DNA of 64,000 bases from positions 640,001 to 704,000 of the forward strand of contig CAVSQW010000007.1 in assembly GCA_963730185.1 (NCBI GenBank), read 5' to 3'. A program made the position numbers and the translations under genes. How positions within the stretch are numbered: position 1 is the first letter of the stretch; the number at the start of each line of letters is the position of its first letter. Origin of the DNA: an uncultured Gemmatimonadales bacterium (lineage in GTDB: Bacteria; Gemmatimonadota; Gemmatimonadetes; Gemmatimonadales; GWC2-71-9). The notes beneath the pieces are model-generated. The model did no database searches and was not told where the DNA came from. It was given only the letters and a program-made list of their open reading frames with translations. Positions 7,110 to 45,857 of the stretch are shown piece by piece.

Positions 7110-8647
7110 ATGTTGACCCCGTTGCTCGCCGTCTTGCTGGCCGCGCAGGCTCCCACCCAGCCCCCTGCCGTCAAAGGGGTCTGGGAGCCGGTCAGTTACA
7201 CCGAGGATCTCTCCCTCCGCGAGGTCTTCTTCGTCACCGCGGACAAGGGCTGGGTGGCCGGCGACAAGGGCACCATTCTCCGGACCTCGGACGCCGGAAA
7301 GACCTGGGAGGCGCAGATGGGTGGCGACCCGGCTGCCGACGAGCCTCCCGTGAGACTGCTGCGCTTCATCGACGAGCAACGGGGTTGGGCGTTCAAGGAT
7401 GGGCGCGTGCTCCGGACCGAGGACGGGGAGAGTTGGGAAGACCTCGGTGCCGCTCCGTCGACGTTCACGGAGCTGGCCATGAACTCGGCCCGCGAGGGGA
7501 CCGCCGCCGGCTATGTCGGAATCGGGAGCGCTCCCACCACCCTGTTCAAGACCCGGGGACGGCGGGAAGACCTGGAAACCGGTCGCCGAGTGCTCGGTCA
7601 AGGCGGTGATGGGCGGTCTCGAACCGGACCGTCGCCTGTCACGTGTTCCGGATCCAGTTCGTCACGGCGTCCGTGGGTTATCTGGCCGCCCGAAGCCAAT
7701 GTGTCGGGATGGGGTGTGACGGCCCGCCCATTCTCGGGAAGACCGATGACGGCGGTGAGAGCTGGCGCTTCTTTACGCTCCCCGTCGACGACCAGAACGT
7801 GGGGACCCGGGACCTGTTCTTTACCGACGAGCATACCGGGTTCGTCCGCACCAGCGACGGCAAGCTGTCTCGGACGACCGACGGTGGGGTCACCTGGAAG
7901 GGTCTCCTCGCCAGTGTGGGAAGCAGCGGTCAACTGGGGTTCGCCGACCCGGAGGTGGGCTGGGCGCTGGAGGAGTACAAGGTCAGCTTCACCGTCGACG
8001 GCGGCAGCCGGTGGAAGTCCCGCCCATTCCGGTTTCCCACGATCCCGCGGGCCTGGAGTTTCCCGCGCCGCGACCGCGCCTATGCGGTTGGCGACCACGG
8101 GATGGTGTTTCGCTACCGCGTCCTTCCCGTTGCTCAGCCGGTGGCGGCGGCCTCGGTGCCGGCGCCTGCCATGCCGGCCTTCGCCTCCCCGCTCGACTCT
8201 CAGGTCTCGGCATTGGATGGTTTCGTCCAGGACCTCTCGGCCCTCGTCGAGCAGCTCCCGGATTCGTCCGGGGCGGCCGGGGCCTCACCGGCCGTGACTG
8301 CTGCTCCCGGAGATGCCGGCGCATTCGAGCAGGACGCCCCGCCCTCGGCCTTCGTGGCCGACTGTTGCGGCAAGCCGGTCAACCGTCTCAACGCCATCCT
8401 CGGCGCCGTGCTCCAAAGCCTGCCTCAGTTCGTGACTCGGTTCAAGAACACCAATCTGCTGGTGGCCGGGCTCCGAATGCTCTCCACCATGCCGTCGCAG
8501 CTGAGCGACCTCCGAGGGGCGCTCAGGGAGTTCAAGCGCGCGACCGACAAGCCCAGCGCCCAGGCGGCGCTGCTCCGGCTTGGCGGCGCGGCGAGCTCCC
8601 TCGGGCAGTCGACCAAGTTGGCATTCCAGACGGAGGTGACCCCATGA
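7110..8647 (+). CDS. Secreted YCF48/BNR-repeat beta-propeller protein with C-terminal helical domain (frameshifted about 7555-7640)
   Basis: Signal peptide; Asp-box repeats TSDAGKTW, TEDGESW, DGGKTW, TDDGGESW, TTDGGVTW, TVDGGSRW; motif GWVAGDKGTIL. Confidence 0.8.
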
Positions 8648-10783
8648 CCCGCTCACCCTGGCTCGTCGCGCTGGCCGGCCTGGTGACCACGCCGGTCCTG
8701 GCCCAGCCACCCGCGACGCCGTGCTGCGGCATCGTGCAAGTCGACCCGAGGACTGGGCTGGTGAAGGCCAAGGTTACGGCCGACGGCAGCCTGTTCACCT
8801 TCAAGGTCACCAACCCCTGGATGTTGGCGTCGCTCAAGGTGGGACAGGCGGTCTTTGCCAACTTCGGAAAGCGCCAGGTGTCGCTCGACGGACGCCAGGT
8901 CTGTTGCGCGATCGTCGGCGGCCTCACGGCCGCGCCATCCCCGGCGCCGCCACCTCCGCCCTCCACCGCCGTCCCAGCCGCAGGTGAGCGCGCCTCCCCC
9001 GGTGGCGGTGCGTCCGCCGGCCGGCCGGGCGAGCGCCCCGCCAACTTCGTCCCCGATCGCCGGACCGGTGGTGATCACCGCCGCGATGATCAACAGTCTC
9101 CGACGGTGACCTTCGGCCCACCCCGGGCCTGGACCGCCGTTCCCGCCCGGGCCCGGAGCCGGCTCGAGGCCGCGACCGTCACCGCCCCGGTCGCCGGTCG
9201 GTCGGTCACCGGGTCGATGCTCTATCTCCGCGGTCTCAAGGCCGCGGAGCAGGCGTCCAGCCTTCCCAGGGCGCCCGCCGGCTCCTCTGTGATGCTGGTC
9301 CGCCGGGTTCCGCCGGGGGAGTCCGATCACTATATCGTCGATCCGCAGCTGGCCCGGGAATGGATCGCGGCTCATCCGGTGCCGGACGAAGTGAAGGCGA
9401 CCGAACCGGCGGACAAGGAGTGCGGCAATTGGTACGACAGTTGGGATTGTGCGGGCCAGGCCGTGAGCGACGAGTGGCAACGGGCGTACGACCACGCGGT
9501 GGACCAGTGGAAGGACGCCGAGAAGACGCTCGCCGAGTCCTGGAAGACGACCCAGGCCTGCTTCACCGAGCGGACCATTTCTTCAGGTCGTATCCCGGTC
9601 AAGTTCGAGATCACCCCGTCCATGACGGTGAGCCTCTCCCAGAGCGGATCGAAAGGATCGGCGCAGGGAACGGTGGCCGGCAGTACCACTCTCGGTATTC
9701 CGATGCAGTCCGATGTCGGGGCCCGGCTCGACCTCTTCTATATCCCGTGTCTGCCCTTCGCCGTGCGTCCCAAGGCGCTGGCCGGGGACGGCACCCTGAA
9801 CGGTGGGCGAAGAACTGACAGCGGACGTCTCCGCCACCGGTCGCTTCGACAAGACCTTCACCCTTCCTCCGACCGGCGGTCCGGTGATTCCGATTCAGGT
9901 CTTCCCGATCATCATCGGCGGGGTGCCGGTGGCCGAACTGGATGTGAGTGCTTATATCGAAGGCAATGTCGAGGTCAGCGCGGCCGGCCGTGCCGTAGGG
10001 CAGTTCCGAATCAAGAACACCAACCCGAGCCAGTTCGATTTCGCGTGCAGCGGCAAAGGCTGCTCGGCGAGGTCCAAGGCCCAGGGTTCCTCCACCACCA
10101 CCAACGAAAGCGCCCAGATCCAGGGCACGGTGACGGTCAAACCAGCCCTCTTTACGGCCCTCCAGCTCGATTTCAACTATGAGGCCCTGAGCGCCCGGAT
10201 CGGTCCGCAGCCCTACCTGACGGGCGAAGCCGCGGGATGTGCCGCGGCAGCGGGCTCGCAATCCGGTGGAGGGGCCTCGGCCGTCCGGGAGAATCACGTC
10301 GTCAGTGCCGACCTCGACTGGGGAGTCGAACTCCGGGCGGAGGCGCTGGTGCTGGGCAAGGTCGTGGGAAGTCCCTACGTCCGCAGAGTGATGGCCGACA
10401 AGCACATCTGGTTCCGCGACTTGGCCCCGGGCGGTTCCACCGCTCTGGTGGCCGTGGCCGAGAGTACCGGGCAGGCCACGGTCGGGAAGCCGGCCGGCTA
10501 CAGCGTCAGGATGCCTTCGTGCTACCCCTATCCGGATCGGGTCGAGTACGCCGTCGCCTGGACCGGCAACGCCGCTCCGGCCCCTCGGGCGGGCTGTGTT
10601 TGGCAGGCCGGCGCAGGTCGGGGCCGCTGCAAGGCTGCGCCCCTCCAGGATTTGAACATCCTGCTGACGTGGCCGACCGCGGGCAGCTATTCCCTGACGG
10701 TGGTTCCGGTGGGCGACGCCCACGATCGGATCTTTGCGCCGGCGCCGCCACCGACCACGCTGGAGGTTACCGTCTTGCCCTGA
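8644..10783 (+). CDS. Secreted Cys-rich, beta-rich hypothetical protein (frameshift near 9800, probably others near 9000-9300)
   Basis: ATG overlaps the upstream TGA; signal MTRSPWLVALAGLVTTPVLA|Q; N-terminal domain bounded by CC pairs; coding-like sequence continues in ORF 9803..10783. Confidence 0.7.
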
Positions 10784-30429: not shown

Positions 30430-30887
30430 CCGGTGATGGGAAGCCGAAGTGAGCGGGCGTGGATAATTCATCCACTTGCGCTCGGATTTCGTGGTTACTA
30501 CTCTGTAGCACCTCTTTATTAACTGACTTGAATGACGAACCGGCACTGCTCGCGCACCGCGAGCTTGGCAGCGGACATATCGGCCGTGCGGCAGCTCGGT
30601 CCGAGAGGCGCTGGGGTCCGAAGGATCGTATCCAAAGCACAGTTGACAGGGCGGTAGGACGAGGAGACCGGCGGGCTGGCCGGTTGTTTTTCGCAGCGAG
30701 CGCGCGGCACGTTGGAACCTTGGGGGGCGTGCCTGCCGTAGTGTGGATCTCCATTCGGATCACAGGGTCAACGCCGGCGCGGGACAGTGCGACCGGCGTC
30801 CCATTCAAGGCGCCCCGGCGACGGTCGGTGCCCGTTTTTTCTCAATTCGTCGGTGGGTGCAGTTTGGCTAAATCACTGGGGGTTGTC

Positions 30888-33800
30888 ATGCATTTGCCCT
30901 ACCTGACCAGACGGATTCGCTCGGTGGGAGCGATCGCGCTGGGCTTGTCCCTGCTCTTGCTCGGCGGCGGCAGACCGCTGGCCGCGCAAGGCAACGTCTC
31001 GATCCGCGGCACGGTGACGGAAGGCGCGACGCAGCGGCCGGTCGCCGGTGCCGCGGTGCTCCTGGTGGAGCGGAGCCTCCGGGCGCAAGCGGACGCCAAC
31101 GGCGTCTTCCAGTTTCGGGACGTGCCGGCCGGCCAGTACACGCTGACGGTGCGCGCGATCGGCTTTTCGCCGTCGACCCAGACGGTCACGGTGGGTGGCG
31201 GGGCGCCGGCCACGGCGGACTTTGCCCTGGTGCGCGCGGTCATCAAGCTCGACGAAGTCGTGGTGACCGGAACCGCCGGCCAGACCTCCAAGCGCGAGAT
31301 CGGCAATTCGGTGAGCAGTGTCGAGGTCGGTGAGCTGACCGAAGTCGCCCCGATCAACAACGTCCAGGAGCTGCTGAACGCCCGGGCGCCCGGTCTGACG
31401 CTGACGTCGAACTCGGGTCTCCTCGGGGCGGCCTCCTCGGTGCAGATCCGAGGCGCCGGTTCGCTCAACGCCGGGTACACGCCGGTGTACTACATCGACG
31501 GGATCCGGTTCGAGGCCAACCAGGTGGCCACCGGCGGGGTGACCAACGGCACGGTCCAGTATTCGAGCCCGATGGACTTCATCAATCCCTCGGACATCGA
31601 GCGGATCGAGGTGATCAAGGGCCCGGCCGCCGCGACGCTCTACGGGGCCGACGCGGCGGGCGGCGTGATCCAGATCATCACCAAGAAGGGCATCCGCGGT
31701 GGTGAGCGGGTCCAGTGGCAGGCGAGCGCGGGCTACTCGTCGTCCAAGTGGATCGCCGACATTCCGCTCAACTACTACCAGTGCAACGCGGCCAAGATCC
31801 GGAACGCCACGAGCTATCCGGGCTGCCACGACCCGAGCTCGGTCACCTATGCGACGCAGAACGGCATGGTGACCGGGATTCCCGAGTCGGACATCACCCG
31901 CTACGGCGACTCGCTGTTCGTGATCGTGGACAACCCGTTGGCTCGTGACCCGTCCGCGCTTCGGACCGGCGCCGGCGGCGACTTCAAGCTCTCGGCCCGG
32001 GGCGGCAGCCAGACCTTCGGCTACTTCATCTCGGCCAACAAGCTCAACGAAGACGGGATCTACTACAACAACTTCCAGGATCGGATCGGCGGTCGGGCCA
32101 ACTTCGACTTCACGCCGTCGCAGATCATCAACTTCAGCGTGAACTTCGGGTACACCCGGTCGCACTACCAGATGCCGCTCTCGGACAACGCCTCCAACGG
32201 CATCCTCCGGAACGCGTACCGGGGCAAGGCTCGGGCGACCCTGGATCCCTGGTCGACGGGGTGGTTCAGCTTCGGCCCGGAGCAATCCAACGAATTCGAC
32301 CTCCAGACCTACGAAGAACGGACCACGCTCGGACTGACGACCAACTTCAATCCGTTCAGCTGGTTGGAGAGCCGATTGGTGCTCGGCATGGACAAGTACG
32401 ACCGTCGGGACCAGACCTTCTACCGGATCGACCCGACCCGGAAGTGGGGGGCGACCGCCGGAACCGGGCTGATCGACCAGCGGTTGCCGGTGACCCATAC
32501 CTGGACCTTCGATTACTCGGCGACCGCCCGGGCGAAGGTCTCTTCGAACCTCACGTCGAAGACCTCGGCGGGGCTCCAGATCAATGCTCGCCAGTACCAC
32601 CGCTACACGGCGACTGGTACCGGGCTGGTGGCCAACAACCTGAATCTGGTGGGCGCGGCCGCCACCACCTCGGCGGACGAGGGCTTCGTCGAGCAGACCT
32701 CGCTCGGCGTCTTCGTGCAGAATCAGTTCGGCTGGAAAGACCGGCTCTTCGCGACTGCGGCGGTCCGGATCGACGACAACTCGGCCTTCGGCTCCAACTT
32801 CTCGCTGGTGGTCTATCCGAAGGCCTCTCTGTCGTGGGTCATCTCGGAGGAGCCGTTCTTCCACCTGCCGTTCGTGGACGAGCTCAAGCTCCGGGCTGCC
32901 TACGGACAGGCCGGCAACGCGCCGGCGCCGTTCTCGGCCGACCGGACCTTCTCGCCGGTGGCCACCCTGGTCGATCAGACGGCCACCAACGCGCTGACCC
33001 CGGCCGCCTACGGCAACACCAACCTCAAGGCCGAGACCGGCCAGGAAATCGAGCTGGGCTTCGACGCCTCGCTCTTCAAGAACGCGGTGGGGCTGGAGGT
33101 GACCTACTACAACCAGCACACCAAGGACGCGTTGATGTCGATTCCGGACGCGCCCTCGACCGGCTTCACCGCGACCCACTTGGTGAACGTGGGTGAGATC
33201 GCCAACAAGGGACTCGAGGTCCTGGCCCAGATGAGCCCGATCCGGGCCCGCAAGCTCACCTGGGACATGACGGTATCGGCGGCGTTCAATCACAACCAGC
33301 TGGTATCGTTCGGTGGGACCCGGAACGAGATCGCGTTCGGGGCCTTCACCAACTCGCAGCGGATGCGTGAAGGCTATCCGCTGGGCGGGTTCTGGGCGGT
33401 GGACGTGCTCCGGAACACGGACGGCTCGATCGCGCTCGATGCCAACGGCAACGTGACGGTCGATGCGACCTGCACCTGGCCGGACACGCAGGACCCGAAC
33501 GGGCCGGGCGGGAGCTGCCACGAGATCTACATGGGGCCGTCGACGCCCACCCGGGAAATCGGGTTCGGCAACGCCTTCACGATTCTGGGCAATCTCCGGC
33601 TCTACGCCCAGCTGGACTACAAGGGCGGTCAGCACATCGTCTGCGCCATCTGCTCGATCCGGCAGCGGATCAACACCAATACCTGGGCCGTGGCCAATCC
33701 GGACACGCCGCCCGAGGTGTACAAGCAGCTGACCAGCTTGCAGACGCTGACCTACATCATGCCGGGCGACTTCCTCAAGCTCCGCGAGGTGTCGCTCAGC

Positions 33801-34013
33801 TACAACGTCCCCTCCAGCCTCGGTCGGTTCTTCAAGGACTACCGCTGGAACGTGACGGTGTCGGCCCGGAATCTCTGGACGACCACCAAGTACAAGGGCA
33901 CCGGCGATCCGGAAGTGTCGTTCTACTCCGACGCCAACAATTTCGACCGGACCGACTACGCGGCCGTTCCGGCTCCGCGCCGGCTCCAGGTCACCGTCAA
34001 CGTCGCGTTCTGA
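30888..34013 (+). CDS. SusC/RagA-type TonB-dependent outer membrane receptor
   Basis: Signal peptide; carboxypeptidase-regulatory-like domain; LDEVVVTG; INPSDIERIEVIKGPAAATLYGADAAGGVIQIITKKG; C-terminal Phe. Confidence 0.95.
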   Translation: MHLPYLTRRIRSVGAIALGLSLLLLGGGRPLAAQGNVSIRGTVTEGATQRPVAGAAVLLVERSLRAQADANGVFQFRDVPAGQYTLTVRAIGFSPSTQTVTVGGGAPATADFALVRAVIKLDEVVVTGTAGQTSKREIGNSVSSVEVGELTEVAPINNVQELLNARAPGLTLTSNSGLLGAASSVQIRGAGSLNAGYTPVYYIDGIRFEANQVATGGVTNGTVQYSSPMDFINPSDIERIEVIKGPAAATLYGADAAGGVIQIITKKGIRGGERVQWQASAGYSSSKWIADIPLNYYQCNAAKIRNATSYPGCHDPSSVTYATQNGMVTGIPESDITRYGDSLFVIVDNPLARDPSALRTGAGGDFKLSARGGSQTFGYFISANKLNEDGIYYNNFQDRIGGRANFDFTPSQIINFSVNFGYTRSHYQMPLSDNASNGILRNAYRGKARATLDPWSTGWFSFGPEQSNEFDLQTYEERTTLGLTTNFNPFSWLESRLVLGMDKYDRRDQTFYRIDPTRKWGATAGTGLIDQRLPVTHTWTFDYSATARAKVSSNLTSKTSAGLQINARQYHRYTATGTGLVANNLNLVGAAATTSADEGFVEQTSLGVFVQNQFGWKDRLFATAAVRIDDNSAFGSNFSLVVYPKASLSWVISEEPFFHLPFVDELKLRAAYGQAGNAPAPFSADRTFSPVATLVDQTATNALTPAAYGNTNLKAETGQEIELGFDASLFKNAVGLEVTYYNQHTKDALMSIPDAPSTGFTATHLVNVGEIANKGLEVLAQMSPIRARKLTWDMTVSAAFNHNQLVSFGGTRNEIAFGAFTNSQRMREGYPLGGFWAVDVLRNTDGSIALDANGNVTVDATCTWPDTQDPNGPGGSCHEIYMGPSTPTREIGFGNAFTILGNLRLYAQLDYKGGQHIVCAICSIRQRINTNTWAVANPDTPPEVYKQLTSLQTLTYIMPGDFLKLREVSLSYNVPSSLGRFFKDYRWNVTVSARNLWTTTKYKGTGDPEVSFYSDANNFDRTDYAAVPAPRRLQVTVNVAF

Positions 34014-34023
34014 GGAGAGAACC

Positions 34024-35457
34024 ATGCGATTTCATAGATTCTCCAGATGGGCCGCCGGGCTGACGGTCGCCGCCTTCTCGGTGGTCCTCGTTGCCTGCGA
34101 CAGCATCCTGAAGGTCAACAATCCGCAGCAGATTCCGGTGGCGTCCCTGGACGACACCACCCTGATCGAGGCCCAGGTGGCCGGCGTCCTGGCCCAGTTC
34201 CAGGACGAGTACACCCGGAGCAACGGGGCGCTGCTCTGGAGCGCCAACTTCATTACCGACGAGCAGGTGACGGGGCTCAACTGGGAGGACTACGCCCGGG
34301 TCAACCAACGGATCGTGAACTACACCGAGGGACCGGTGCGGCTGATCTGGGCCGGGCTGAGCGGGATCATCCGCCAGTCCGAGGACGTGTCGGGTCGGAT
34401 CGAGGCGCTGCTCAGCGCGCAGGACAAGCGGCTGGCCCTGACCTCGGTGTACGCCGGGTACGGCTACACCCTGACCGGTGAAACGATGTGCATGGCGGTG
34501 TTTGGAACCGCCGAAAACCCGGGAACCGCAATCGAGACCCCGGACCAGATCTTCGCCCACGCGGTCCCCTGGTTCCAGAAAGCCATCTCGATCGGCGGCG
34601 CCACGGGGCAGACCGATCTCGTCAACCTGGCCCACGTCGGCCTGGCGCGCGCCTATCTCAGCATGGGCAACTTCGCCGGCGTCATTCAGGAAGCCTCGGC
34701 CGTCCCGTCGACCTTCCAGTACTGGGTCGAGTACTCGGCCTCGCAGACCGCGCTCAACGACGGCCTCTACGGCAACATCCACGGCGCCAACTTCAACATG
34801 GGCGTCTCGCCCTGGTTCCTGCAGGGCACGTTCGGCGATCTCGACATCATCGATACCCAGACCGATCCGCGGATTCAGCACGCCAAGGACTGGAAGAAGG
34901 GGCACAATGCCCTGACCCCACTCTACAAGCCCTACCAGGGGCTCCGGTTCAGCGGCTACACCGGCGAGACCCAGGCGCCGGCCTCGGCCGGCTGCCCGAA
35001 CTGCACCGGCGCGGTGGCGTCGTCGAGCGGCGACACCGGTCCGCTGCTGCTCTACCAGCAGGACACCCAGGTGCTGCTGGCCGACTACCTGGAAGCGCAG
35101 CACGACCTGATGGAAGCGACCCTCCGCTCGGGCGGAAGCGAGCAGGTGGTGCTCGACTTCGTGAACGCCCGACGGGCGGTAGGCAACGAGCCGCCGGTGA
35201 CGCTTTCCGGCTCGGCGCTCTTCGCGGAGCTCCGCCGCCAGCGCTCGCGGGACTTCTATCAGGGCGGGCTCCGGCTGGGCGATCTCCGGCGCTGGAAGCG
35301 GGACGGCGTAGGTGACTTCTTCCCGACCGGCAACCACGTGAACGTCGAGTGGGGCGCCTACAGCAACTGGACCTGCTACCCGCTCCCGCTGGAGGAATAC
35401 GAAGGGAACCCCGCCCTGCCCAAGCCGGCCGATCCCTTCACCCCGCCGGGCATCTGA
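34024..35457 (+). CDS. SusD/RagB family lipoprotein
   Basis: VLVA|CD lipobox; GLARAYL; ELRRQRSRDFYQGGLRLGDLRRW; PLPLEE...NP; directly follows susC-like gene. Confidence 0.9.
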   Translation: MRFHRFSRWAAGLTVAAFSVVLVACDSILKVNNPQQIPVASLDDTTLIEAQVAGVLAQFQDEYTRSNGALLWSANFITDEQVTGLNWEDYARVNQRIVNYTEGPVRLIWAGLSGIIRQSEDVSGRIEALLSAQDKRLALTSVYAGYGYTLTGETMCMAVFGTAENPGTAIETPDQIFAHAVPWFQKAISIGGATGQTDLVNLAHVGLARAYLSMGNFAGVIQEASAVPSTFQYWVEYSASQTALNDGLYGNIHGANFNMGVSPWFLQGTFGDLDIIDTQTDPRIQHAKDWKKGHNALTPLYKPYQGLRFSGYTGETQAPASAGCPNCTGAVASSSGDTGPLLLYQQDTQVLLADYLEAQHDLMEATLRSGGSEQVVLDFVNARRAVGNEPPVTLSGSALFAELRRQRSRDFYQGGLRLGDLRRWKRDGVGDFFPTGNHVNVEWGAYSNWTCYPLPLEEYEGNPALPKPADPFTPPGI

Positions 35458-35480
35458 CCCCGCGGTTCAACCGGGAACAG

Positions 35481-35524
35481 AGAGGGGTGGAAGGCCGGGC
35501 CAGGGCTTCCACCCCTTTCCTTTT
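35481..35524 (+). terminator. Hairpin / probable intrinsic terminator after susD-like gene
   Basis: GGGGTGGAAG...CTTCCACCCC 10-bp stem followed by TTTCCTTTT. Confidence 0.65.
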
Positions 35525-35542
35525 GGGGCGATCATCCAGGGT

Positions 35543-36409
35543 ATGACGCGGACCATCGTGGCGGCGGGGCTGGCCCTCGCCTGTGCCCATCCGCTCTGGG
35601 CGCAGCGAGTCCACGGCCAGCTGCGGGACCTCGAGACCAGGAAGCCGCTGGACGGCGGCCTGGTGACGCTGCGCACCGCCCGGGGCGAGCGGGTCGGGTC
35701 GGTGGCGGCGACCAACCAGGGCACCTTCGAGATCCTGGTGCCCGCCCCGGGCCTCTATTACGTGGAAGTGAACCGGCTGGGCTACCGTCTCCTTCGCGAC
35801 GGTCCGTTCGAGCTCGAGGCGGGCGGCGACCGGGAGGCGATCTACTCGCTCCAGCGCCAGGCCTTTCAGCTCGCCCCGATCGAGGTCAACGCGGCCCAAC
35901 CCAAGGCGCGGAGCACCTACCTCGAGGAGGTGGGCTTCTACGAACGACAGAAGTCGGACTTCGGGCACTTCATCACCCGCGAGGAAATCGAGCGACGCCA
36001 GGCTCACCGGTTCACGGACCTGCTCCGGCTCATCCCAGGCGTGGGGATCCAAGACAACGGGAACGGAAGCGGGTCGAGTATCCAGCTTCGGGGATCGATG
36101 CTCTCGCTCGGTGGGGCCTGTCATCCTCAGGTGATCGTGGACGGGCTAATCGTGATGCGGGGCACCGCTCGCCCGTGGCGTCCCGCCAACGCGCGTCCCG
36201 AGGACCGGGCCACCGAACAGTCGCTTCCCGCGCTCGATCCCGACCGCGAGCAGGTTTCGATCGACGACGTGGTCATGCCGGACGACGTGGAGGCGATCGA
36301 GGTGTTCCGGAGCGGCGTCCAGGTACCGGTTCGCTTCGGGGGCACCAGCACCTCCACCCAGTGCGGCGTGGTCGTGATCTGGACTCGGCGAGGCCACCGC
36401 GACTCGTGA
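35543..36409 (+). CDS. Secreted carboxypeptidase-regulatory-like + TonB plug-domain protein (no barrel)
   Basis: Signal peptide; GFYERQK..FGHFITREEI; TDLLRLIPGV; VEAIEVF; CGVVVIWTR. Confidence 0.8.
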   Translation: MTRTIVAAGLALACAHPLWAQRVHGQLRDLETRKPLDGGLVTLRTARGERVGSVAATNQGTFEILVPAPGLYYVEVNRLGYRLLRDGPFELEAGGDREAIYSLQRQAFQLAPIEVNAAQPKARSTYLEEVGFYERQKSDFGHFITREEIERRQAHRFTDLLRLIPGVGIQDNGNGSGSSIQLRGSMLSLGGACHPQVIVDGLIVMRGTARPWRPANARPEDRATEQSLPALDPDREQVSIDDVVMPDDVEAIEVFRSGVQVPVRFGGTSTSTQCGVVVIWTRRGHRDS

Positions 36410-37608
36410 CGCAACCGATCGTTCCCGGACCCCGGTCGGCCCCGGTTCCCTGGCTGCTGACCGGGGCGCTGGCCGTGGTGCTGGCCTGCAGCCATCCCGC
36501 AACCGAGGCCGCGACTGGCGAGCCCGGTACCCCGATCGCGGGGCTTTCGCCCGCCGAGCTGGGGCGGTTCAAGGCGGGCGAGGCACTCTTCAACACCGTG
36601 TTCAATCCCGATCAAGGCCTGGGGCCCGCCTTCAACGAGAACCAGTGCAGCGCCTGCCACACCTCGCCGGCCAGCGGGGGAGTAGGCGGCGAGCGGATCC
36701 TCAAGGCGACCCGGTACGACGCCTCGACCGGCTGCGACCTGCTCGTGGCCCAGGGGGGCGAGAACGTCCGCCGGAAGGTCACCCGACCGGCGGCCGCCGG
36801 CGGGATCCCTCGCGAGTCGGTCCCCGACGGCGCCACGCCCGGTCACTTCACGGCTCCGTCGCTCTATGGGATCGGATTGGTCGATGCCGTGCCCCAGGCC
36901 GAGGTCGACGCGTTGGCCGATCCCGACGACCGGGACGGCGATGGGATTTCCGGCCGGGTCGGACGGACACCCGAGGGGCGGCCCGGGCGGTTCGGCCGGA
37001 AGGCCGACGTGGCCACCGTCGCCGACTTCGTGGCCTCCGCGCTCTATCTCGAGATGGGGCTCACCACCAGCCGGCACCCGGCCGACGAGGTCCAGGGCGC
37101 TCCGCCCCCACCCGCCACCGATCCGGGGCATGACCCGGAGGTCGACGACGCGTCGATGGCGTTGCTGGTGAGCTACGTCCGGCTCCTGGCGCCACCGGGC
37201 CGAGGCGCGCCACCCCCCGGGTGGACGGCCGAGTCGGTGGAGCGGGGGGAGCAGATCTTCGGCGCCATCGGCTGCAACCGATGCCACGTGCCGTCGCTCA
37301 CGACCGGCCCGGATTCCGCGCCGGCCCTGGCCCGGAAGCGGATCGCGCTCTACTCCGACCTGCTTCTCCACGACATGGGGCCCGGACTGGCCGACGTCTG
37401 CGGTCCAGGCGCCACGCCGTCCGAGATCCGGACCGAGGCCCTGATGGGAATCCGCTACCGCGACCTGCTGATGCACGACGGCCGGACCAGCAACCTCCGC
37501 CAGGCGGTGGAGCTGCACGACGGCGAGGCCCGACCCGCTCGGGATGCGTTCCGGGCGCTCTCGGCGGCCCAGCAGGCGGAGCTGATCGCCTTCCTCAAGA
37601 CGCTCTGA
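36406..37608 (+). CDS. Di-haem oxidoreductase family (DHOR/DUF1111-like) lipoprotein
   Basis: VLA|C lipobox; GLGPAFN..CSACH; DPDDRDGDGISGR; GRFGRKA; GCNRCH; YSDLLLHDMG; MHDGR. Confidence 0.9.
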   Translation: MTQPIVPGPRSAPVPWLLTGALAVVLACSHPATEAATGEPGTPIAGLSPAELGRFKAGEALFNTVFNPDQGLGPAFNENQCSACHTSPASGGVGGERILKATRYDASTGCDLLVAQGGENVRRKVTRPAAAGGIPRESVPDGATPGHFTAPSLYGIGLVDAVPQAEVDALADPDDRDGDGISGRVGRTPEGRPGRFGRKADVATVADFVASALYLEMGLTTSRHPADEVQGAPPPPATDPGHDPEVDDASMALLVSYVRLLAPPGRGAPPPGWTAESVERGEQIFGAIGCNRCHVPSLTTGPDSAPALARKRIALYSDLLLHDMGPGLADVCGPGATPSEIRTEALMGIRYRDLLMHDGRTSNLRQAVELHDGEARPARDAFRALSAAQQAELIAFLKTL

Positions 37609-37643: not shown

Positions 37644-38174
37644 CTACGGCCGGCGCACCGGGAGGCCCATCGAGTGGCAGGAAATCTGGGCCCCCGCCGG
37701 AACGACCACCTTGGTGTCGATCGCGTCGTTGCCGCGCTGGCTCGGATCCTCCTCGTACGGCTGGATGGTCTCGGCCACGGCACCGTGGAGGTCGTACGTC
37801 GTCCGGCCGATCCGCGGCGGCCGCGTGAACTGCATGGCCGTCGCGCCCCGATAGAAGAACTCGATCGCCACCGGCGTGACCGCGTGACCCTGGGTGGGCG
37901 GCTGGATCGTGACCGAGCGGTTGCAGATCTCCTGGCCGCCGGCCCCGTTCCGGGCGTTGACCCAGGCCAGGATCGGGTGGGTCCCGGGTGCGCCGCTGTT
38001 GCCGACCGTGAGGATCACCCGGATCATCATCCCGCCCGGCACCGAATGAGCCGGCGGGTTGGTGCCGTTGCCCCCTCCGGAGAGTCCGACCCAAAAGTCG
38101 GGGCCCGCCGAGACCCAACTGAGGCTGGCGAGCACGGCCGCGAGGCCAAGGATGGAGTGCCGTAGATTGGGCAT
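37644..38174 (-). CDS. Secreted hypothetical protein with possible CARDB/Ig-like fold
   Basis: Signal MPNLRHSILGLAAVLASLSWVSA|; PDFWV...LTVGNSG...EEDPSQRGND pattern; two Cys. Confidence 0.65.
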   Translation of the reverse strand: MPNLRHSILGLAAVLASLSWVSAGPDFWVGLSGGGNGTNPPAHSVPGGMMIRVILTVGNSGAPGTHPILAWVNARNGAGGQEICNRSVTIQPPTQGHAVTPVAIEFFYRGATAMQFTRPPRIGRTTYDLHGAVAETIQPYEEDPSQRGNDAIDTKVVVPAGAQISCHSMGLPVRRP

Positions 38175-38176
38175 GT

Positions 38177-38653
38177 TCACTTGTCCGGTGGATCGGGACA
38201 GTCGTAGGTGCAGCTGAGCTCGGTGTCGCTTCCGGAGACCCCGGTGATGAAGCACTGGACGCCGGCCACGGAGAGCGGCGGACACGCGACGATCGGACCG
38301 CCGGGGGTGCGGTGAAGCTTGACGATGACGGTCGCGGCGTTGGGGGCGTTGGCTGTCGTCGAGGGGATGGCCGGCACGACCCGACGGTGGATGGGGACGG
38401 AGTACTTGGCACCCCAGGCCACCAGGGCGCTGTGGATCGGTCCGAGCCGCTGGTTGATCAGCGCGATCGTGAGACTGGACCGGGGCAGGTTGGCAATGGC
38501 CGTCGTGGCCTGGGCGCGGATCGCCGAGAGGTCGCGGTCCCGGGGCTGGATCGAGGGGGCGACGGGGTGGCGCTGCGCCAGCGCGGGAGTCGCTACCGTC
38601 GACCCCAACCCGGCGAGGAGGAGCATCACGATCGGCATTCTGGAGACCGGCAT
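38177..38653 (-). CDS. Secreted 4-Cys protein, paralog 3
   Basis: Signal ending PALA|Q; LGPIHSALVAWGAKYSV; C-terminus CPP..QCFI...LSCTYDCPD. Confidence 0.8.
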   Translation of the reverse strand: MPVSRMPIVMLLLAGLGSTVATPALAQRHPVAPSIQPRDRDLSAIRAQATTAIANLPRSSLTIALINQRLGPIHSALVAWGAKYSVPIHRRVVPAIPSTTANAPNAATVIVKLHRTPGGPIVACPPLSVAGVQCFITGVSGSDTELSCTYDCPDPPDK

Positions 38654-38666
38654 CGAAAGCCTCGCT

Positions 38667-39164
38667 TCACGGGTTGAGGGTATCGGGGCAGTCGTAGACG
38701 CAGATCAAAGTGTTGTTGACGATTTGGGCGTCGGTGATGCCGCAGGGCATCCCCGTGCTGGCCCATTCCATCGGGCAGGTGGCCGTTCCGCCGTGGGGAA
38801 TGTCCACCGTGACGATCTTGGTGCTGGCGATCGGCCGGTTACCGGCCAGCCTGGTGGCCGGAACCCGGTGGGTGGTGAGCTTGACGTGGTACCGGGCGGC
38901 CCAGGCGGCCAGCGAGGTTCGAACCGGCGCCAGTTTGGCGGTCAAGGTGGCGGCGGTGAGGCCCTTCTGGGTCGCGAGCTGGGCATAGAGGGTGCGCGCC
39001 GAGCCGATCAGCGTCTGGTAGTCGTGGTCGCGGGCGGCGGTCGAGGCGGCCGGACCGGTGGGACGATGGACCTGGGCCCCGGCGGTGGCCGCGCCGGTCA
39101 GGAGGAGGAGCGTGGCGAGTTGGCCCACGCGATGGACTCGGTGACCTCGTTCGGGTGCCGGCAT
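38667..39164 (-). CDS. Secreted 4-Cys protein, paralog 2
   Basis: Signal ending AGA|Q; LAPVRTSLAAWAARYHV; CPM..PCGI...LICVYDCPD; ATG overlaps the paralog 1 stop (TGATG). Confidence 0.8.
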   Translation of the reverse strand: MPAPERGHRVHRVGQLATLLLLTGAATAGAQVHRPTGPAASTAARDHDYQTLIGSARTLYAQLATQKGLTAATLTAKLAPVRTSLAAWAARYHVKLTTHRVPATRLAGNRPIASTKIVTVDIPHGGTATCPMEWASTGMPCGITDAQIVNNTLICVYDCPDTLNP

Positions 39165-39685
39165 CACATCTCCGCTGGTTGATTGTCGGGGCATTCGTAG
39201 ATGCAGTAGAGCTGCGATCCCTCCCGGTCGACCGCCACGAGGGTGCAGGGATGGCCGTCCGGTCCGGACGGATCACAGTCGACCGTGCCACCGTTCAGGT
39301 CGATGATCTTGATGACCGTGGCCGCGTTCGGGAGCCCGCTCTTCCCGCCGGGCGGTTCGCGGTTGGCGGTGATCACCTTGTGGGTTTTCAGCACGACGTG
39401 GTAACGGGAGGCCCAGGCCTCGAGGCTGGCCCGCACCGGCCCTAGCAGGGCGGTGATCCGGGCCGGTGCGAGCCGACCCATCCCGGCGATCCGGGCTCTC
39501 GTGCCCCTCGCCTGCTTCATGATGTCGAGGTACTGAGATTTCTGGGGCGCGCTCCACGCCGGCGGACGTAGGGCGCGGGGTTGCGCCAGGACGGGCACGG
39601 CCAGAATGGCGCCCAGCAGGACGCCGGCGAGGCCGGGCCGACCGATCAGGCTGCCGAAACGGATCATGGGGTCTCCTGGGCTCAT
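39164..39685 (-). CDS. Secreted 4-Cys protein, paralog 1
   Basis: Signal ending PVLA|Q; LGPVRASLEAWASRYHV; CDP..PCTL...LYCIYECPD. Alternative start at 39667. Confidence 0.8.
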   Translation of the reverse strand: MSPGDPMIRFGSLIGRPGLAGVLLGAILAVPVLAQPRALRPPAWSAPQKSQYLDIMKQARGTRARIAGMGRLAPARITALLGPVRASLEAWASRYHVVLKTHKVITANREPPGGKSGLPNAATVIKIIDLNGGTVDCDPSGPDGHPCTLVAVDREGSQLYCIYECPDNQPAEM

Positions 39686-40046
39686 GGTGAAGGTTCGCTC
39701 GCTCGGCGGCCGTCCTGCCTGGCCCGAATCCGCCGCCCCATGATAGGACCGGCGTCTCACACGGCTCTCATTGCCGGATCAACCTGTGTCAACAGGTTGC
39801 CACTTCGGGTCTTGGGGAGTTCGACCGGGCGAGGAACGGGACCCCACGGATCGGCGCGCCATCCAGCGACGGCGGATCTGCCGCTTGACGCCGGGGCGCC
39901 CCATTCGCCGTCGTGGGTACCGTCGTGCCGGCGGCGACGGGGCGGAGGTCGTCGCGCAGCTGTTGGATGCCGGGAGCGGGACCGCCGCTCAGGCCTTCTC
40001 GGCGAGCCAGCCGACCTGGGAGTTGTGGGCGGCCCCCGGCTACGCC

Positions 40047-40083: not shown

Positions 40084-40422
40084 ATGAGTCCCGATCGCCG
40101 TCGCGCCGACATCCTCCAGGGCATGCTGGACATGCTGATCCTCAAGACGGTGGCCGACGAGCCGCTCCATGGCTACGCCGTGGCCCAGCGGATTCGGCTG
40201 CTCTCGGGCGACCGGCTCCAGATTCCGCAAGGCTCGCTCTACCCCGCGCTTCACCGGCTCGAGCTGAAGGGCTTTCTCAAGAGCCAGTGGGCCGCGACCG
40301 AGACCGGTCGGGACGCCAAGTTCTATCGGTTGACCCCCAAAGGACGCCGCCAGCTCGACGCGGAACTGTCGGGCTGGCGGGAGCTGTCGGTCGCGATCTC
40401 TCTGGTATTGGGCGCGACCTGA
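40084..40422 (+). CDS. PadR-family transcriptional regulator (acidobacterial type)
   Basis: LQGMLDMLILK...LHGYAVAQRI...QGSLYPALHRLE...GRDAKFYRLTPKG. Confidence 0.93.
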   Translation: MSPDRRRADILQGMLDMLILKTVADEPLHGYAVAQRIRLLSGDRLQIPQGSLYPALHRLELKGFLKSQWAATETGRDAKFYRLTPKGRRQLDAELSGWRELSVAISLVLGAT

Positions 40423-40426
40423 TCGG

Positions 40427-40813
40427 TCAGCGGGGAACGAGGCCGAGCAGGCGGCCGGTGTTGCACTCGATCCGGAGCAGCTCGTCGAGGCCGGCGCCGT
40501 AGCGGCCCGGCGGTCCTGCGTAGTCGCCCACCCCCCCGGCGGACCGGACCAGCCGGGCCACTCCCCGATCCCGCGGATCGATCAGCGGTGAGAGACATCC
40601 GCTCCCGGCCAGCGTGTCGGCCGGTTGCAGCAGCGCTCGACGGTTACCGGGCTCGAATCGGGCCGGGGCCCCGCTGGCAGGCCGGACGGACTCGGGCCCG
40701 GGCATGGTTTCGGGACCGTGGTGCCCGCAGCCGAGAGCTCCCGCCAGCAGCGACGACACGATCACCGCCGCGATCCGACGCGCGCCGCGACCGATGAGCT
40801 CGCTCGAAGTCAT
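40427..40813 (-). CDS. Hypothetical small lipoprotein
   Basis: GGAGG RBS; LAGALG|C lipobox; CLSPLIDPRD...GDY...GRYG...LLRIEC. Confidence 0.7.
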   Translation of the reverse strand: MTSSELIGRGARRIAAVIVSSLLAGALGCGHHGPETMPGPESVRPASGAPARFEPGNRRALLQPADTLAGSGCLSPLIDPRDRGVARLVRSAGGVGDYAGPPGRYGAGLDELLRIECNTGRLLGLVPR

Positions 40814-40873: not shown

Positions 40874-40950
40874 AGGGACTGGTGAGTCGGGAGTCGTGAG
40901 TGGGGAGGGAACAGGGACTGGGGACTAGGGGGGTCGAAGGGTCGAGGGAC
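40874..40950. repeat. Degenerate heptamer tandem repeat (nGGGAST / nGTGAGT)
   Basis: AGGGACT GGTGAGT CGGGAGT CGTGAGT GGGGAGG .. AGGGACT GGGGACT in an intergenic spacer. Confidence 0.7.
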
Positions 40951-42011
40951 TACGGCAGGCGGACGGCGGAGTAGGTGAAGGGCGTGCCCCGGTCGTTGCC
41001 GCTGCCGGTGTGATCGCCGCGGACCCAATGGGGGAAGACGGCGCCGCCGACCTGAGTGAGGGTGTAGGTGCCGTCGCCGTTGTCCACCAGACTCTCGACG
41101 AACGAGTCGGGGGTGAACTTCGGGTCCCATGGCATGTCCTCGACGTAGAAGCGGCGGAAGTAGCCGCCCACGAAGCGACCGCTGCCCAGCTCGAACATCA
41201 GGCCGACGGTGGCGGCGTCGTTGACCCGGTACCGCTCGACGGCCGGCGGACTGGTGCCCGGCACCGCGACGATGGTGGTGTAGGCCGCGCACACGAAGGG
41301 GTCGGTGGCCGCGGCCGGGGTGCAGTTGATCCCTCCGCCGGCCTCGGCGGTGGTTGGGTCGGCCAGCGCGGCGTAGGCGATGTCGCGGATGTCGAAGTAG
41401 AGCCGGAGCACGACCGGAATCGCGATCGTGTCCGACACGACCAGCGCCGGCACGATATCGAAGGCGGCGCCGCACCCGTGAAACCGCACCGGCACCGGCT
41501 GGGGTGTCCCGGTCGGGGCCAGGTTGCCGGCGGTCTGGGTCACGTAGCCGACTCCCCCGATGGTCGTCGTGCCCGTCAGATAGGCGTTCCACTCGGTCTC
41601 GGCGTTGCCACAGTAGCTGACGACGACCTGATCGTAGGTGCCGACCGGGACCGACACGGGGTCGGTGCTGAGCAGAGTGGACAGCTCGGGGCCGTTGAGC
41701 TCCACCAGGCAGTCGTCGGCCACCAGGCCGCTGCACTCGTAGAGCGGCGCGTCGCTGGTGCCCGACCCCCGGATCTCGATCCGGGTAATCGGGCTCTTGA
41801 GGGAGCTCAGGCTCACCTGGCTGGTCCAGGGAATGGTGCCCGGCGGGGTCGCCGCCGGGCCCGTCTGCACGATCGGGGATGCGCTGGCGTTCCCACCCAA
41901 CCGGACCAGCTCGGCGTGGACCGAGACATCGGAGCTTCCGCCGCCGCAGGCGGCAAGCACGACGGAGGCCGAGAGGACCAGCACCGGACACCAGCGGGAA
42001 GAAGCATTCAT
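40950..42011 (-). CDS. Hypothetical Cys-containing beta-rich lipoprotein
   Basis: MNASSRWCPVLVLSASVVLAA|CGGG lipobox; coding bias through to TAG 40950. Confidence 0.75.
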   Translation of the reverse strand: MNASSRWCPVLVLSASVVLAACGGGSSDVSVHAELVRLGGNASASPIVQTGPAATPPGTIPWTSQVSLSSLKSPITRIEIRGSGTSDAPLYECSGLVADDCLVELNGPELSTLLSTDPVSVPVGTYDQVVVSYCGNAETEWNAYLTGTTTIGGVGYVTQTAGNLAPTGTPQPVPVRFHGCGAAFDIVPALVVSDTIAIPVVLRLYFDIRDIAYAALADPTTAEAGGGINCTPAAATDPFVCAAYTTIVAVPGTSPPAVERYRVNDAATVGLMFELGSGRFVGGYFRRFYVEDMPWDPKFTPDSFVESLVDNGDGTYTLTQVGGAVFPHWVRGDHTGSGNDRGTPFTYSAVRLP

Positions 42012-42043
42012 ACCGACGCAAGCTAGGAACGGCGCTCCCGTCC

Positions 42044-42067
42044 GCCATCGCATCATCATGCGATGGC
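42044..42067. promoter_or_regulatory. Perfect 10-bp inverted repeat, candidate NarL-type operator
   Basis: GCCATCGCAT-CATC-ATGCGATGGC between the response regulator stop and the lipoprotein start; no U-tract. Confidence 0.55.
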
Positions 42068-42763: not shown

Positions 42764-45591
42764 GGGGCGCCGCCTCGGGCCAGCGTGACCCGGGTCCCGC
42801 CATCCGGCGCGGCGGTCCAGATGACCGACCCGCCGAGCGCGCGGGCCCGGCGGCGCATGCTCTCGCGGCCGAGGCCGTCCGAGCGGTCGTCGGCCGGGAG
42901 GCCGGCGCCATCGTCCTCGACCACCAGCCGCCAGGCCCGGGGTGTTCCGCCGAGGGAGAGCGTCACCTGCCGGGCTTGGGCGTGGCGGGCGGCGTTGTGC
43001 ATCGCCTCGAGTCCGATCAGGAGGACGCTTCGGCTGCCCGAGGAGTCCAGCCGAACATCGCCGGCCCACTGGGGCAGGTCGGCGGTGAAGCGGATGTCGT
43101 CGCCGGCGAAGAGGCGGGCCCCGTGCTCGGCCAGCCGGGCCGCGACATCGCCGAGGGTGCCGGCCCGGGGTCGAAGCGACCAGACCAGGTCGGAGAGGGA
43201 GGTGGCCAGCTCGCTCGCGATCTCGCCGATCGTGCCCGCCAGCGACCGCCCCTCCGGGTCGGTGTTCGGCCGATCCGCCAGGACGCCCGAGAGGATGCCG
43301 ATGCTGCCGAGTCCCGAGCCCAGCTCGTCGTGCAGGTCCATCGCGATCCGAGTGCGTTGCCGCTCGAGCCGGAGCAACATGGCCACCCGGGCGCGGTGTC
43401 CGAGATAGAGCAGCGCCGCCGCGGCAAGGGCGGCCAGGCCGAGCGCCCAGCCCTGCAGGTACCAGGGTGCCCGGACCGCGACCGAGAACGAGGCCGGCGT
43501 CGCCGACCAGTTCCGTCCGTCGAGCGAGGCGCGGACCTCGGCCCGATACTCCCCGGCGGGAAGATCGATCCAGCTGAACGAGGGACGACCGGTCTGATCG
43601 ATCCAGCCGCCGCCGGGCGTGAGGCGGACCTGGTACCGGACCCGGGTCGGGTCGCGGTACGAGAGGGCGGCGAAGCGGAGGTCGAGGCGATTGTGACGAT
43701 GGCGGAGCCGGACCGGAGCGTCCGGGGCAACGCGTGATCCGTCGACCAGGACGTCGATCAGGACCGGCTCGGGCGCCGCCAGCGGGCCCCGGCGGGCCGC
43801 GGCCGGCACCCGCGCGAGACCGAGTGAGGTCGCGACCCAGAGGGTACCGTCCGGGTCTTCGAGCACGTCCTGCCCTTCGGACGGGATGCCGTGCCAGGCG
43901 GTGAGTTCTTCCAGCACCTCCCAGCCCAGCGGCGAATCGAGGTTCTCTCGAACCCGAACCGGTGTCGCGAACCCGAGGATCCAGATGCCGCCGTCGCGCG
44001 AGGGGCGGAGGCCATAGACGGCCCGGGCCGAGAGCTGGCCGTTGCCGGGGTGCGGTTCCCACCGACCGTGATGCCGGCGCCAGACGCCCAGGCGCGACGA
44101 CCCGGCCCAGATCGAGCCGCTGGGCGTTTCCACCAGCCCCGTGATCTCGACCGCGCCGGGGATCGAGTCGCAGGCCCACTGCGCCCCGGTCGGTCGGCCG
44201 GTGGGCCGTTCGGTCCGGCAGACGGTCTCCTCGCCGGCCAGCCAGAACCGGCCGTCTCGGGCGTGGAGCAGCTGGCGTACCTCCGCCCCGGGCGGTAGGG
44301 GTGAGTCGGTCACGGTCCGGATCGGACCGCCGTCGCCGGGGGCGTGGAGAATCCCGTGATTGGTGGCGAGCCAGACGCCACCGGAACCGTCGTCCTCGAT
44401 GTCCCATTCGAGCCCGACGAACGGTCGCCGCCGGAGGGCCCGCCTCCCCGCGACCTCACGGAGCCCACCGGTGGTGGCGATCCAGAGCGTCTTCCGGGCA
44501 TCGAGGTGGAGCCGGGTTCGGCTGATCCACTCGTCGGGCAGGCTGCCGGCCACCCGGCCCGACGGCAGGTCGTCGACGTAGCCCAGACCCTGCCAGGTGC
44601 TGACGTAGACTCGAGACCCGGACCGGGCCAGGTAGCGCGTGTGGGCCGACGGGAGGCCGTGGCGGTCGTTCCAGAAGACCGTCTCCGGCTCCGGAAACTG
44701 GAGCAGGCCGCTGAAGGTGCCGAGCCAGAGGTCGCCCTCGCGGTCCACGAGGAGGGGGCCGCCCCCCTCGGGTATCTCGTCCGAGCCGATGACGGTCGAG
44801 CGCCCCGACGAATCGATCGCCGCCAGCCACCGGTCGAACGCGGCCCACACGGTCCCTCGACGCCGGACCACCGCGATCCCTCTTCCGAGGGGCGGGACCA
44901 CGGTCCTGACCCGGCCTCCGGTCGGGGCCACCACCCCGGCGTTCGAGGTGATGACCAGGGTATCACCTCGGGCGTCGACCACCACGCCGTTGGGACGGCC
45001 CACGGTCATGATCCGCCGGGTCGTCCCGTCGGCCTCGAGGCGCCAGAGGGCGACGTCGGTGCGGACCCAGACTCCCGGGCCAGGCGGTCCGTTGATCAGG
45101 AGAGGGCTCGCGCCGGCGAAGGCGGCGGGGGGCGCTTCCTGCCACTGGCCCGAGCTCGACCGCCAGCGCACCGAGCGCTGCCCGCCGACCCAAAGCGTGC
45201 CGTCGGTGTCGCACTGCACGCTGCCGGCCGAGGCCGCCTCGACCGTGCCGGTTCCGGCGACCGGCTCGGCCTCGGGACCCGCGATCCGGTAGAGGGTGCC
45301 GCCTTCCTCGATCGCGTAGAGCGTTCCGTCGGGACAGACGGTCAGGTCGTTGATCCAGCTCCGGAGCCGGGACGGAGACCAGCGGCGAACCTCCACGCCA
45401 TCCCAGCGGAGGAGCCCGCCGATGGTACCGATCCAGATGAAGCCGGCGCTGTCCTGGGCCAGACTCCGCACTGATCCGACCCGCACGCCCCCCAGCACGG
45501 CGAAGCGGCGCACCAGCCGGCTCTGGCCGTAGACCGGAGCGGCCGCGAGCACGAAGCCGAGGAACAGGACGAGCCGGCGCGCGAGAGGCAT
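42760..45591 (-). CDS. Sensor histidine kinase with periplasmic beta-propeller + Y_Y_Y domain, HisKA_3
   Basis: QDSAGFIWIGT, VDREGDLWLGT, EDPDGTLWVAT repeats; DLPAGEYRAEVRA; RIAMDLHDELG; EAMHNAARHA; DDGAG; GLGRESM. Confidence 0.93.
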   Translation of the reverse strand: MPLARRLVLFLGFVLAAAPVYGQSRLVRRFAVLGGVRVGSVRSLAQDSAGFIWIGTIGGLLRWDGVEVRRWSPSRLRSWINDLTVCPDGTLYAIEEGGTLYRIAGPEAEPVAGTGTVEAASAGSVQCDTDGTLWVGGQRSVRWRSSSGQWQEAPPAAFAGASPLLINGPPGPGVWVRTDVALWRLEADGTTRRIMTVGRPNGVVVDARGDTLVITSNAGVVAPTGGRVRTVVPPLGRGIAVVRRRGTVWAAFDRWLAAIDSSGRSTVIGSDEIPEGGGPLLVDREGDLWLGTFSGLLQFPEPETVFWNDRHGLPSAHTRYLARSGSRVYVSTWQGLGYVDDLPSGRVAGSLPDEWISRTRLHLDARKTLWIATTGGLREVAGRRALRRRPFVGLEWDIEDDGSGGVWLATNHGILHAPGDGGPIRTVTDSPLPPGAEVRQLLHARDGRFWLAGEETVCRTERPTGRPTGAQWACDSIPGAVEITGLVETPSGSIWAGSSRLGVWRRHHGRWEPHPGNGQLSARAVYGLRPSRDGGIWILGFATPVRVRENLDSPLGWEVLEELTAWHGIPSEGQDVLEDPDGTLWVATSLGLARVPAAARRGPLAAPEPVLIDVLVDGSRVAPDAPVRLRHRHNRLDLRFAALSYRDPTRVRYQVRLTPGGGWIDQTGRPSFSWIDLPAGEYRAEVRASLDGRNWSATPASFSVAVRAPWYLQGWALGLAALAAAALLYLGHRARVAMLLRLERQRTRIAMDLHDELGSGLGSIGILSGVLADRPNTDPEGRSLAGTIGEIASELATSLSDLVWSLRPRAGTLGDVAARLAEHGARLFAGDDIRFTADLPQWAGDVRLDSSGSRSVLLIGLEAMHNAARHAQARQVTLSLGGTPRAWRLVVEDDGAGLPADDRSDGLGRESMRRRARALGGSVIWTAAPDGGTRVTLARGGAP

Positions 45592-45599
45592 GGGGATGG

Positions 45600-45845
45600 A
45601 GGGAAGGTGGGGCGGGTGGGCGCGGGCGGGAAGGGGCGGGGGAGGCGGGGAGAGATGGGAGAGACGGGGAGGGGGACGGGTGGTCGGATCATACTAGATC
45701 TCCCCTCACACCCCTCCCCATCTCTCCCCGCCTCTCCCCATCTCTCCCCATCTCTCCCCATCTCTCCCCATCTCTCCCCATCTCTCCCCATCTCTCCCCG
45801 TCTCTCCCCGTCTCTCCCCGTCTCTCCCCATCCCTCCCGATCTCC
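45600..45845. repeat. Polypurine/polypyrimidine VNTR: about 13 x TCTCTCCCCR with inverted partial copies
   Basis: 45711-45840 tandem 10-mers; 45641-45680 carries reverse-complement units (GGGGAGAGATGGGAGAGACGGGG). Confidence 0.9.
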
Positions 45846-45857
45846 CTCGACTCGTCC

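Follow-up and report, generated by a model that had tools for sequence, protein, structure and literature searches.

The window, the whole stretch of 64,000 nucleotides that was analysed (G000:C7:640001-704000, G000 being the genome that holds the operon), carries an operon of three paralogous genes followed by a fourth gene of another type, and the paralogues belong to a rare family of proteins with an invariant C, C, C-x-Y-x-C pattern. Both the family and its architecture are apparently novel, in that sequence, profile and model comparisons matched them to no described family or fold. The paralogues are predicted to be exported and to fold as two modules. We tentatively favour, at somewhat less than an even chance, the reading that they remain uncleaved and form a hetero-oligomer of the envelope, which would show disulfide-locked heads.

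Organization of the operon and properties of its products

All four genes lie on the minus strand: paralogue 1 (P0001, 167 aa) at positions 39164-39667, paralogue 2 (P0002, 165 aa) at 38667-39164, paralogue 3 (P0003, 158 aa) at 38177-38653 and the fourth gene (P0004, 176 aa) at 37644-38174. The open reading frames and the sequence itself agree in this with the original prediction, as they do in the TGA/ATG overlap at 39164 and the ensuing gaps of 13 bp and 2 bp, but the first start codon probably lies about 130 bp downstream of 39798, the end coordinate given for the operon. An AGGAGA sits 4 bases 5' of the ATG of P0001. The four genes have a third-position GC content of 0.85-0.91 and the adjoining gene for the di-haem oxidoreductase DHOR has one of 0.89, and this resemblance shows that the frames given are the coding frames. 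The four genes are presumably co-transcribed; a promoter scan gave a sole site, on the plus strand before padR, and no terminator was found.

Outside the operon, Pfam identifies the convergent DHOR gene (PF06537; 36175-37608, plus strand), whose real start is probably near 36442, and a divergent gene for a PadR-family regulator (40084-40422, plus strand). Ahead of DHOR, a TonB-dependent receptor, a SusD-like lipoprotein and a carboxypeptidase-regulatory/plug-like protein were noted by eye on the plus strand (30459-36409). Two minus-strand open reading frames, at 40427-40813 and 40950-42047, have no Pfam match, and the product of the latter, which lies downstream of a two-component-like gene pair, resembles a Cys-containing lipoprotein. 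Intergenic short purine-rich tandem repeats occupy 45300-45500 and 45700-45850, where the translations of open reading frames read GEMGRDGERW-like. The genome has two VKOR genes, one of which (G000:C7:708309-708704, minus strand) lies about 4 kb past the window.

The paralogues are 35-38% identical to one another and retrieve one another by tblastn with E-values of 2e-10 to 3e-17, and tblastn, regular-expression and HMM searches of the 5.27-Mb genome found no fourth copy. Each carries the helical motif L-[GA]-P-[VI]-x3-L-x-A-W-x2-[RK]-Y-x-V and the C-x-Y-[DE]-C-P-D motif as originally described. The first cysteine gap, reported earlier as C-x8/9-C, is in fact 9, 10 and 9 residues long in the three proteins, giving a spacing of C-x9/10-C-x13-C-x3-C. 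The cysteine modules span C131-C159 of paralogue 1 (39191-39277), C130-C159 of paralogue 2 (38688-38777) and C124-C152 of paralogue 3 (38198-38284), all on the minus strand. The proposed Sec signal before Gln is likewise predicted from inspection by eye, with a basic N-region, a hydrophobic stretch and an A-Q junction in at least 90% of 30 aligned rows. The hairpin region of the operon proteins is basic (+6 to +13) and their core acidic (-3 to -5); over the family, the core's net charge is 0 to -6, neutral or acidic, and hairpins are acidic in some members. The strong divergence claimed for the residues between the cysteines is real among the paralogues (0.29 identity without Cys) but is not special to them, the helices standing at 0.36. 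Core and helix identities are 0.90 and 0.96 in close orthologue pairs, and 0.63 (0.57 without Cys) and 0.64 in distant ones; by these alignments the cysteine core is not hypervariable and is conserved about as well as the helices among orthologues.

An AlphaFold model of P0002 consists of a two-helix hairpin and a beta-hairpin cysteine module, which are loosely docked (pTM 0.44). The predicted helical hairpin covers residues 42-92 (38889-39041, minus strand), with helices of about 22 residues, hydrophobic residues at heptad spacing, and Ala, Leu and Trp that are conserved. The beta-hairpin is modelled at residues 142-159, there are three beta-strands per chain, and the linker at 103-112 is disordered (pLDDT <50). 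Disulfides C1-C3 and C2-C4 are predicted, the pairing being derived from the strand register. In an alignment of 37 family members every row keeps the four Cys and the Tyr, hairpin positions 49, 52, 81, 85 and 88 are hydrophobic in all 37 rows, Ala is frequent at positions 56, 76, 79 and 89, and L96, L143 and Y157 are conserved hydrophobic residues. A pore-forming hairpin was considered and rejected, the mean hydrophobicity of the helices being only -0.33 to 0.26.

The distance from the conserved Trp to Cys1 ranges from 23 to 56 residues, and several lipoprotein members have an intervening segment rich in Gly/Ser. The 37 rows gave no cleavage motif common to the family: the GG said to precede the C-terminal module is not conserved, lying at most nine residues before Cys1 in 13 rows, and PxA[AS][TKV] occurs in 10, nine of which come from the operon's own clades. 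The narrower PxA[AS][TK] is common to all nine operon proteins, and the modelled C-terminal sheet (114-159) starts directly after it. A double-glycine (bacteriocin/RiPP) cleavage site was rejected on account of the GG count, the Sec/lipoprotein signals and the absence of an adjacent peptidase-transporter or modifying enzyme.

The fourth gene encodes, as expected, a protein of another type, with a predicted signal peptide and cysteines at 84 and 166, but its description as CARDB-like was not confirmed. P0004 has no Pfam match, scores under the 22.7-bit threshold of PF07705, has a marginal profile score that 2 of 500 shuffles equalled, and is absent from the three CARDB matches of the genome even at E 10. 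HHalign against CARDB domains gave probabilities <1%, and a first local CARDB profile, of 4 sequences only, was uninformative. From CARDB and Ig-like domains (PF07705) P0004 further differs in that its mature chain, of 150 aa, has a pair of Cys. Fold comparison returned weak Ig-like matches, and P0004 is likely, going by a model with a pLDDT of 47, an all-beta Ig-like sandwich.

In agreement with the original prediction, no recognised domain was detected in the paralogues. Pfam has no family for P0001-P0003 or P0004, and NCBIfam gave one chance match for the paralogues (E 0.15). Over 37 members scanned against Pfam and NCBIfam the best E-values were 0.011 and 0.033, concerning at most two members and none above cut-off, and PDB sequence searches with two alignments reached best E-values of 0.96 and 0.21. 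Fold predictions were made for full-length chains, the Cys module being compared only within whole models; on this basis Foldseek found nothing at E <=0.001 among PDB structures and viral models. VIA-align matched the helical hairpin alone, and residues 96-165 were barely covered by the fold search. The ESM Atlas yielded unnamed clusters only (0.76-0.82, under the trust level), and no description of the family was found in a literature search with limited coverage of subscription journals. Three leads were discarded, viz., a match of P0033 to Mu Gam (PF07352), at 27.9 bits under the 28.3 cut-off and confined to coiled-coil, an 18-residue chance match to a viral contig, and the label 'exoribonuclease R' that one cluster member carries in its source, which no profile supports.

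Breadth and distribution of the family

A profile built from eight close sequences retrieved 24 proteins at E <=0.001 among 1.84 billion representatives, and later searches raised the family to 70 non-identical members among 74 stored proteins, the other four being P0004 and its homologues. C...C...C-x-Y-x-C is present in 68 of the 70, in keeping with the proposal of an undescribed family. The two exceptions, P0036 and P0062, are both shorter than cluster mates that carry the pattern and look truncated; the cluster partner of P0036, P0071, is complete. The members with the pattern have four cysteines (61/68) or six (7/68). The family takes three forms, namely the long-linker Sec form of the operon, a short-linker form with 23-29 residues from the conserved Trp/Tyr to Cys1, and a clade of lipoproteins (support 100/99) that have a lipobox-like Cys and a further Cys pair. 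In the six-Cys clade the spacing is C-x1/3-C-x10/12-C-x6/7-C-x6/12-C-x3-C, and the strand register suggests a I-IV, II-V, III-VI pairing. P0033 holds two complete units within one chain, and P0029/P0054 represent a fragment in which the parts are joined head to tail over 15 residues. We read P0029 as a piece of a multi-unit chain; a true circular permutation was rejected, given that P0029 has no signal, that its first Met is an internal residue of its relatives and that its two records end differently.

P0019, P0021 (labelled Dehalococcoidia in its source record) and P0027 have additional N-terminal domains, and G000 encodes further secreted proteins with homologues of these domains. In the window, the plus-strand region 7110-10783 contains a YCF48-like propeller gene (PF14870) and then a secreted-protein gene, both apparently interrupted by frameshifts, at about 7600 and about 9815 respectively; the secreted protein begins with a PCC..CC domain that is 39-45% identical to the N-terminal domain of P0019/P0021. 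At another locus of the genome (L022, G000:C8:366100-372180), an operon divergent from a BTAD/TPR regulator encodes a secreted protein with two CARDB domains, a YCF48-like propeller and a further, unnamed secreted protein homologous to the N-terminal domain of P0027 (25%, E 3e-14). The L022 operon suggests a broader pool of shuffled secreted modules.

The family was found, G000 included, in 2 of 22 genomes of the genus, 3 of 401 of the taxonomic family, 3 of 401 of the phylum and 4 of 401 of the class, which are lower bounds since no more than 7-9 candidates were scored for each genome in the large searches. Of seven loci examined at the DNA level, five have one gene (two unlinked loci in G387 and one each in G004, G729 and G679), four of these five having been read over only ~2.6-3.5 kb; the G000 locus has three genes and P0004, and the G023 locus a tandem lipoprotein pair. 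One of the single genes, encoding a six-Cys lipoprotein (L011:3551-10198, in G387), lies directly upstream of an AbiEi/AbiEii pair, with a Mutator transposase near. It is also 5 kb from a DHOR gene; that DHOR flanks the G000 operon as well is possibly due to chance.

No relative of P0004 was found at the loci read as DNA outside G000, and its homologues come only from two contigs (44,817 and 3,155 bp) and, as a near-identical copy, from a contig end. Contigs of identical size (44,817 and 3,155 bp) suggest that the four-gene set recurs on two more contigs and, on the same kind of evidence, that P0014/P0018 form a further tandem pair on four contigs. Scans of genome contigs with P0014 and with the short-linker alignment gave no match, and these clades are known here from proteins alone. 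Each paralogue type is monophyletic across three loci (support 100/98, 99/98 and 84/88) with one-to-one orthologues, viz., P0006 (89%) and P0009 (53-57%) for paralogue 1, P0005 (89%) and P0008 (59%) for paralogue 2, and P0007 (92%) and P0012 (61%) for paralogue 3. A single clade of the three types is neither supported nor rejected (AU p 0.32). P0004 is the most conserved operon protein on the recurring contigs (74-75%). The conserved tandem arrays that had been anticipated are thus seen in the apparent recurrence of the four-gene set and are not general, five of the seven DNA loci being single-gene; the Cys pattern persists in 68 of the 70 members. Going by these loci, the operon is one conserved elaboration of a family often found as a single gene, and since most loci have one gene and none outside G000 has P0004, the three types and the partner appear not to be needed family-wide.

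Assembly, processing or independent action

In the hetero-oligomer that we tentatively prefer, the three paralogues would be exported via Sec with removal of the N-terminal signal, and the Ala-rich two-helix hairpin, the variable linker and the four-Cys beta-hairpin module would remain one uncut chain. The paralogues would associate through their hairpins, with the probably Ig-like P0004, into an envelope complex displaying three different disulfide-locked binding heads. The same hairpin-Cys unit would form a homo-oligomer in single-gene genomes, and the lipoprotein clade would provide it with a membrane tether. The absence of processing, the oligomerisation, the contact with P0004 and the binding role are all presumed. 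A two-helix hairpin with such hydrophobic faces requires a packing partner, and the hairpin and Cys module co-occur in 68 of 70 proteins, also in P0033 and P0029/P0054. The one-to-one retention of the three types at a distant orthologue identity of ~55-60% fits fixed, non-redundant subunits. Against the oligomer, the conserved hydrophobic faces could pack within their own chain, and the modelled disordered linker and pTM would suit just as well a C-terminal module that is independent or can be cleaved off. Most loci carry one gene only, the linker varies in length and is flexible, and the fold of P0004 depends on its low-scoring model. It is a more speculative and doubtful extension that the hairpin is a self-assembling scaffold with interchangeable knottin-like heads mixed from tandem paralogues, lipoprotein-anchored or Ig-docked and shuffled with PCC..CC and P0027-type modules, which would make a new display/effector class in uncultured Gemmatimonadota and other lineages.

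The paralogues may instead be independent compact alpha/beta monomers, in which the base of the hairpin would pack on the chain's own disulfide-braced sheet and which would act singly in the periplasm or outside the cell, likeliest as enzyme inhibitors or orphan immunity proteins with the operon as a specificity panel, which we consider possible at perhaps one chance in a few. Periplasmic immunity and lysozyme-inhibitor genes form arrays of secreted and lipoprotein paralogues, and Sec and lipoprotein forms, singles and tandems, a sporadic distribution and the single copy beside the AbiEi/AbiEii pair and transposase are all in keeping with this. Short-linker members have just 23-26 residues between W88 and Cys1, and L96, L143 and Y157 could form a common core. 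A cognate toxin or enzyme was, however, not found nearby, the 37 scanned members matched no Pfam/NCBIfam immunity family, the one-to-one orthology of three types over three loci is unlike that of fast-turnover arrays, and the conserved fourth gene is left unexplained. Slightly less probable, and on the whole unlikely, are pro-proteins, in which, once exported, the hairpin would serve as a pro-domain or as an immunity domain, with a host protease freeing the disulfide-rich C-terminal peptide of 30-50 residues, either toxin or signal. The part of this earlier proposal that stands is the presence of two modules joined by a variable, disordered linker; the sheet that starts right past PxA[AS][TK] in all nine operon proteins, the basic hairpin set against an acidic core, and the lipoprotein members with six Cys past a flexible linker agree with it. 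The GG does not carry over to the family, no other cleavage motif is family-wide, and the core changes no faster, visibly, than the helices. Cationic defence peptides differ in charge from these acidic or neutral cores. Two-unit and head-to-tail chains also occur. As noted originally for modifying enzymes, the open reading frames and Pfam place no protease, transporter or modifying enzyme beside the operon, and none of the 37 members matched the halocin C8 profiles TIGR04449 and PF22862 at E 0.1.

Two further alternatives appear improbable. A jellyfish-type holdase, i.e., a hetero-trimer built through a small beta-barrel of C-terminal strands with basic hairpin tentacles for holding unfolded clients, like Skp, prefoldin and the small TIM chaperones, would account for the chain size, the one hairpin and three strands, and the basic hairpins that parallel Skp; but no OmpH/Skp or prefoldin profile is matched and none is among the listed fold matches, the helices measure only ~22 residues, some members have acidic hairpins, and a housekeeping chaperone would hardly be so sparsely distributed. 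Still more remote is the binding of a metal (Zn, Cu or Fe-S) by four Cys that form no disulfides. The C-x3-C spacing and the DHOR genes, adjacent here and 5 kb from one further member, speak for it; the scanned G023 region has no DHOR, the four core Cys contain no CxxC knuckle and the proteins are predicted to be exported. The gain of Cys as a pair in the lipoprotein clade and the two VKOR genes, which serve disulfide formation, favour disulfides over metal.

Comparison with known systems

A preprint on ProC8, the halocin C8 precursor (HalI + C8), describes a Tat-exported protein of 283 aa whose cleavage yields an immunity protein from the N-terminal part and a peptide of 76 aa from the C-terminal part, with ABC transporter genes in the flanks (bioRxiv 10.64898/2026.07.27.741052). 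The family resembles ProC8 in that a single exported chain joins a partner domain at the N-terminus to a peptide module at the C-terminus. It differs in its size of ~160 aa, its Sec/lipoprotein signals, its 30-aa core and the absence of a transporter gene. The halocin C8 peptide is itself Cys-rich. If processed, the family would add a new class of peptides, from an uncultured phylum.

Skp is described (PMC8573040) as a trimer whose 17-kDa monomer consists of three strands and one positively charged two-helix tentacle. The operon proteins share with Skp/OmpH, so described, an exported chain of ~17 kDa, a two-helix hairpin, three beta-strands and basic helices, and a trimer is possible. The short helices, the invariant disulfide-type module, the lipoprotein forms and the rare, patchy occurrence set the family apart from Skp/OmpH, prefoldin and the small TIMs, none of which it matched by sequence or among the listed fold hits.

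Assembled as proposed, the paralogues would represent a new bacterial route to show mixed binding heads and a possible engineering scaffold. The family is rare, and the three-plus-one operon is conserved in a few close lineages. To our knowledge, bacterial disulfide-rich mini-domains are few and mainly known from antimicrobial peptides. The family offers a module of ~30 residues with two or three predicted disulfides in about 70 natural variants, and in these respects its core is akin to knottin- and defensin-like mini-proteins. It departs from them in a six-Cys spacing that fits no Pfam family, in its acidic or neutral cores and in being always joined to a hairpin.
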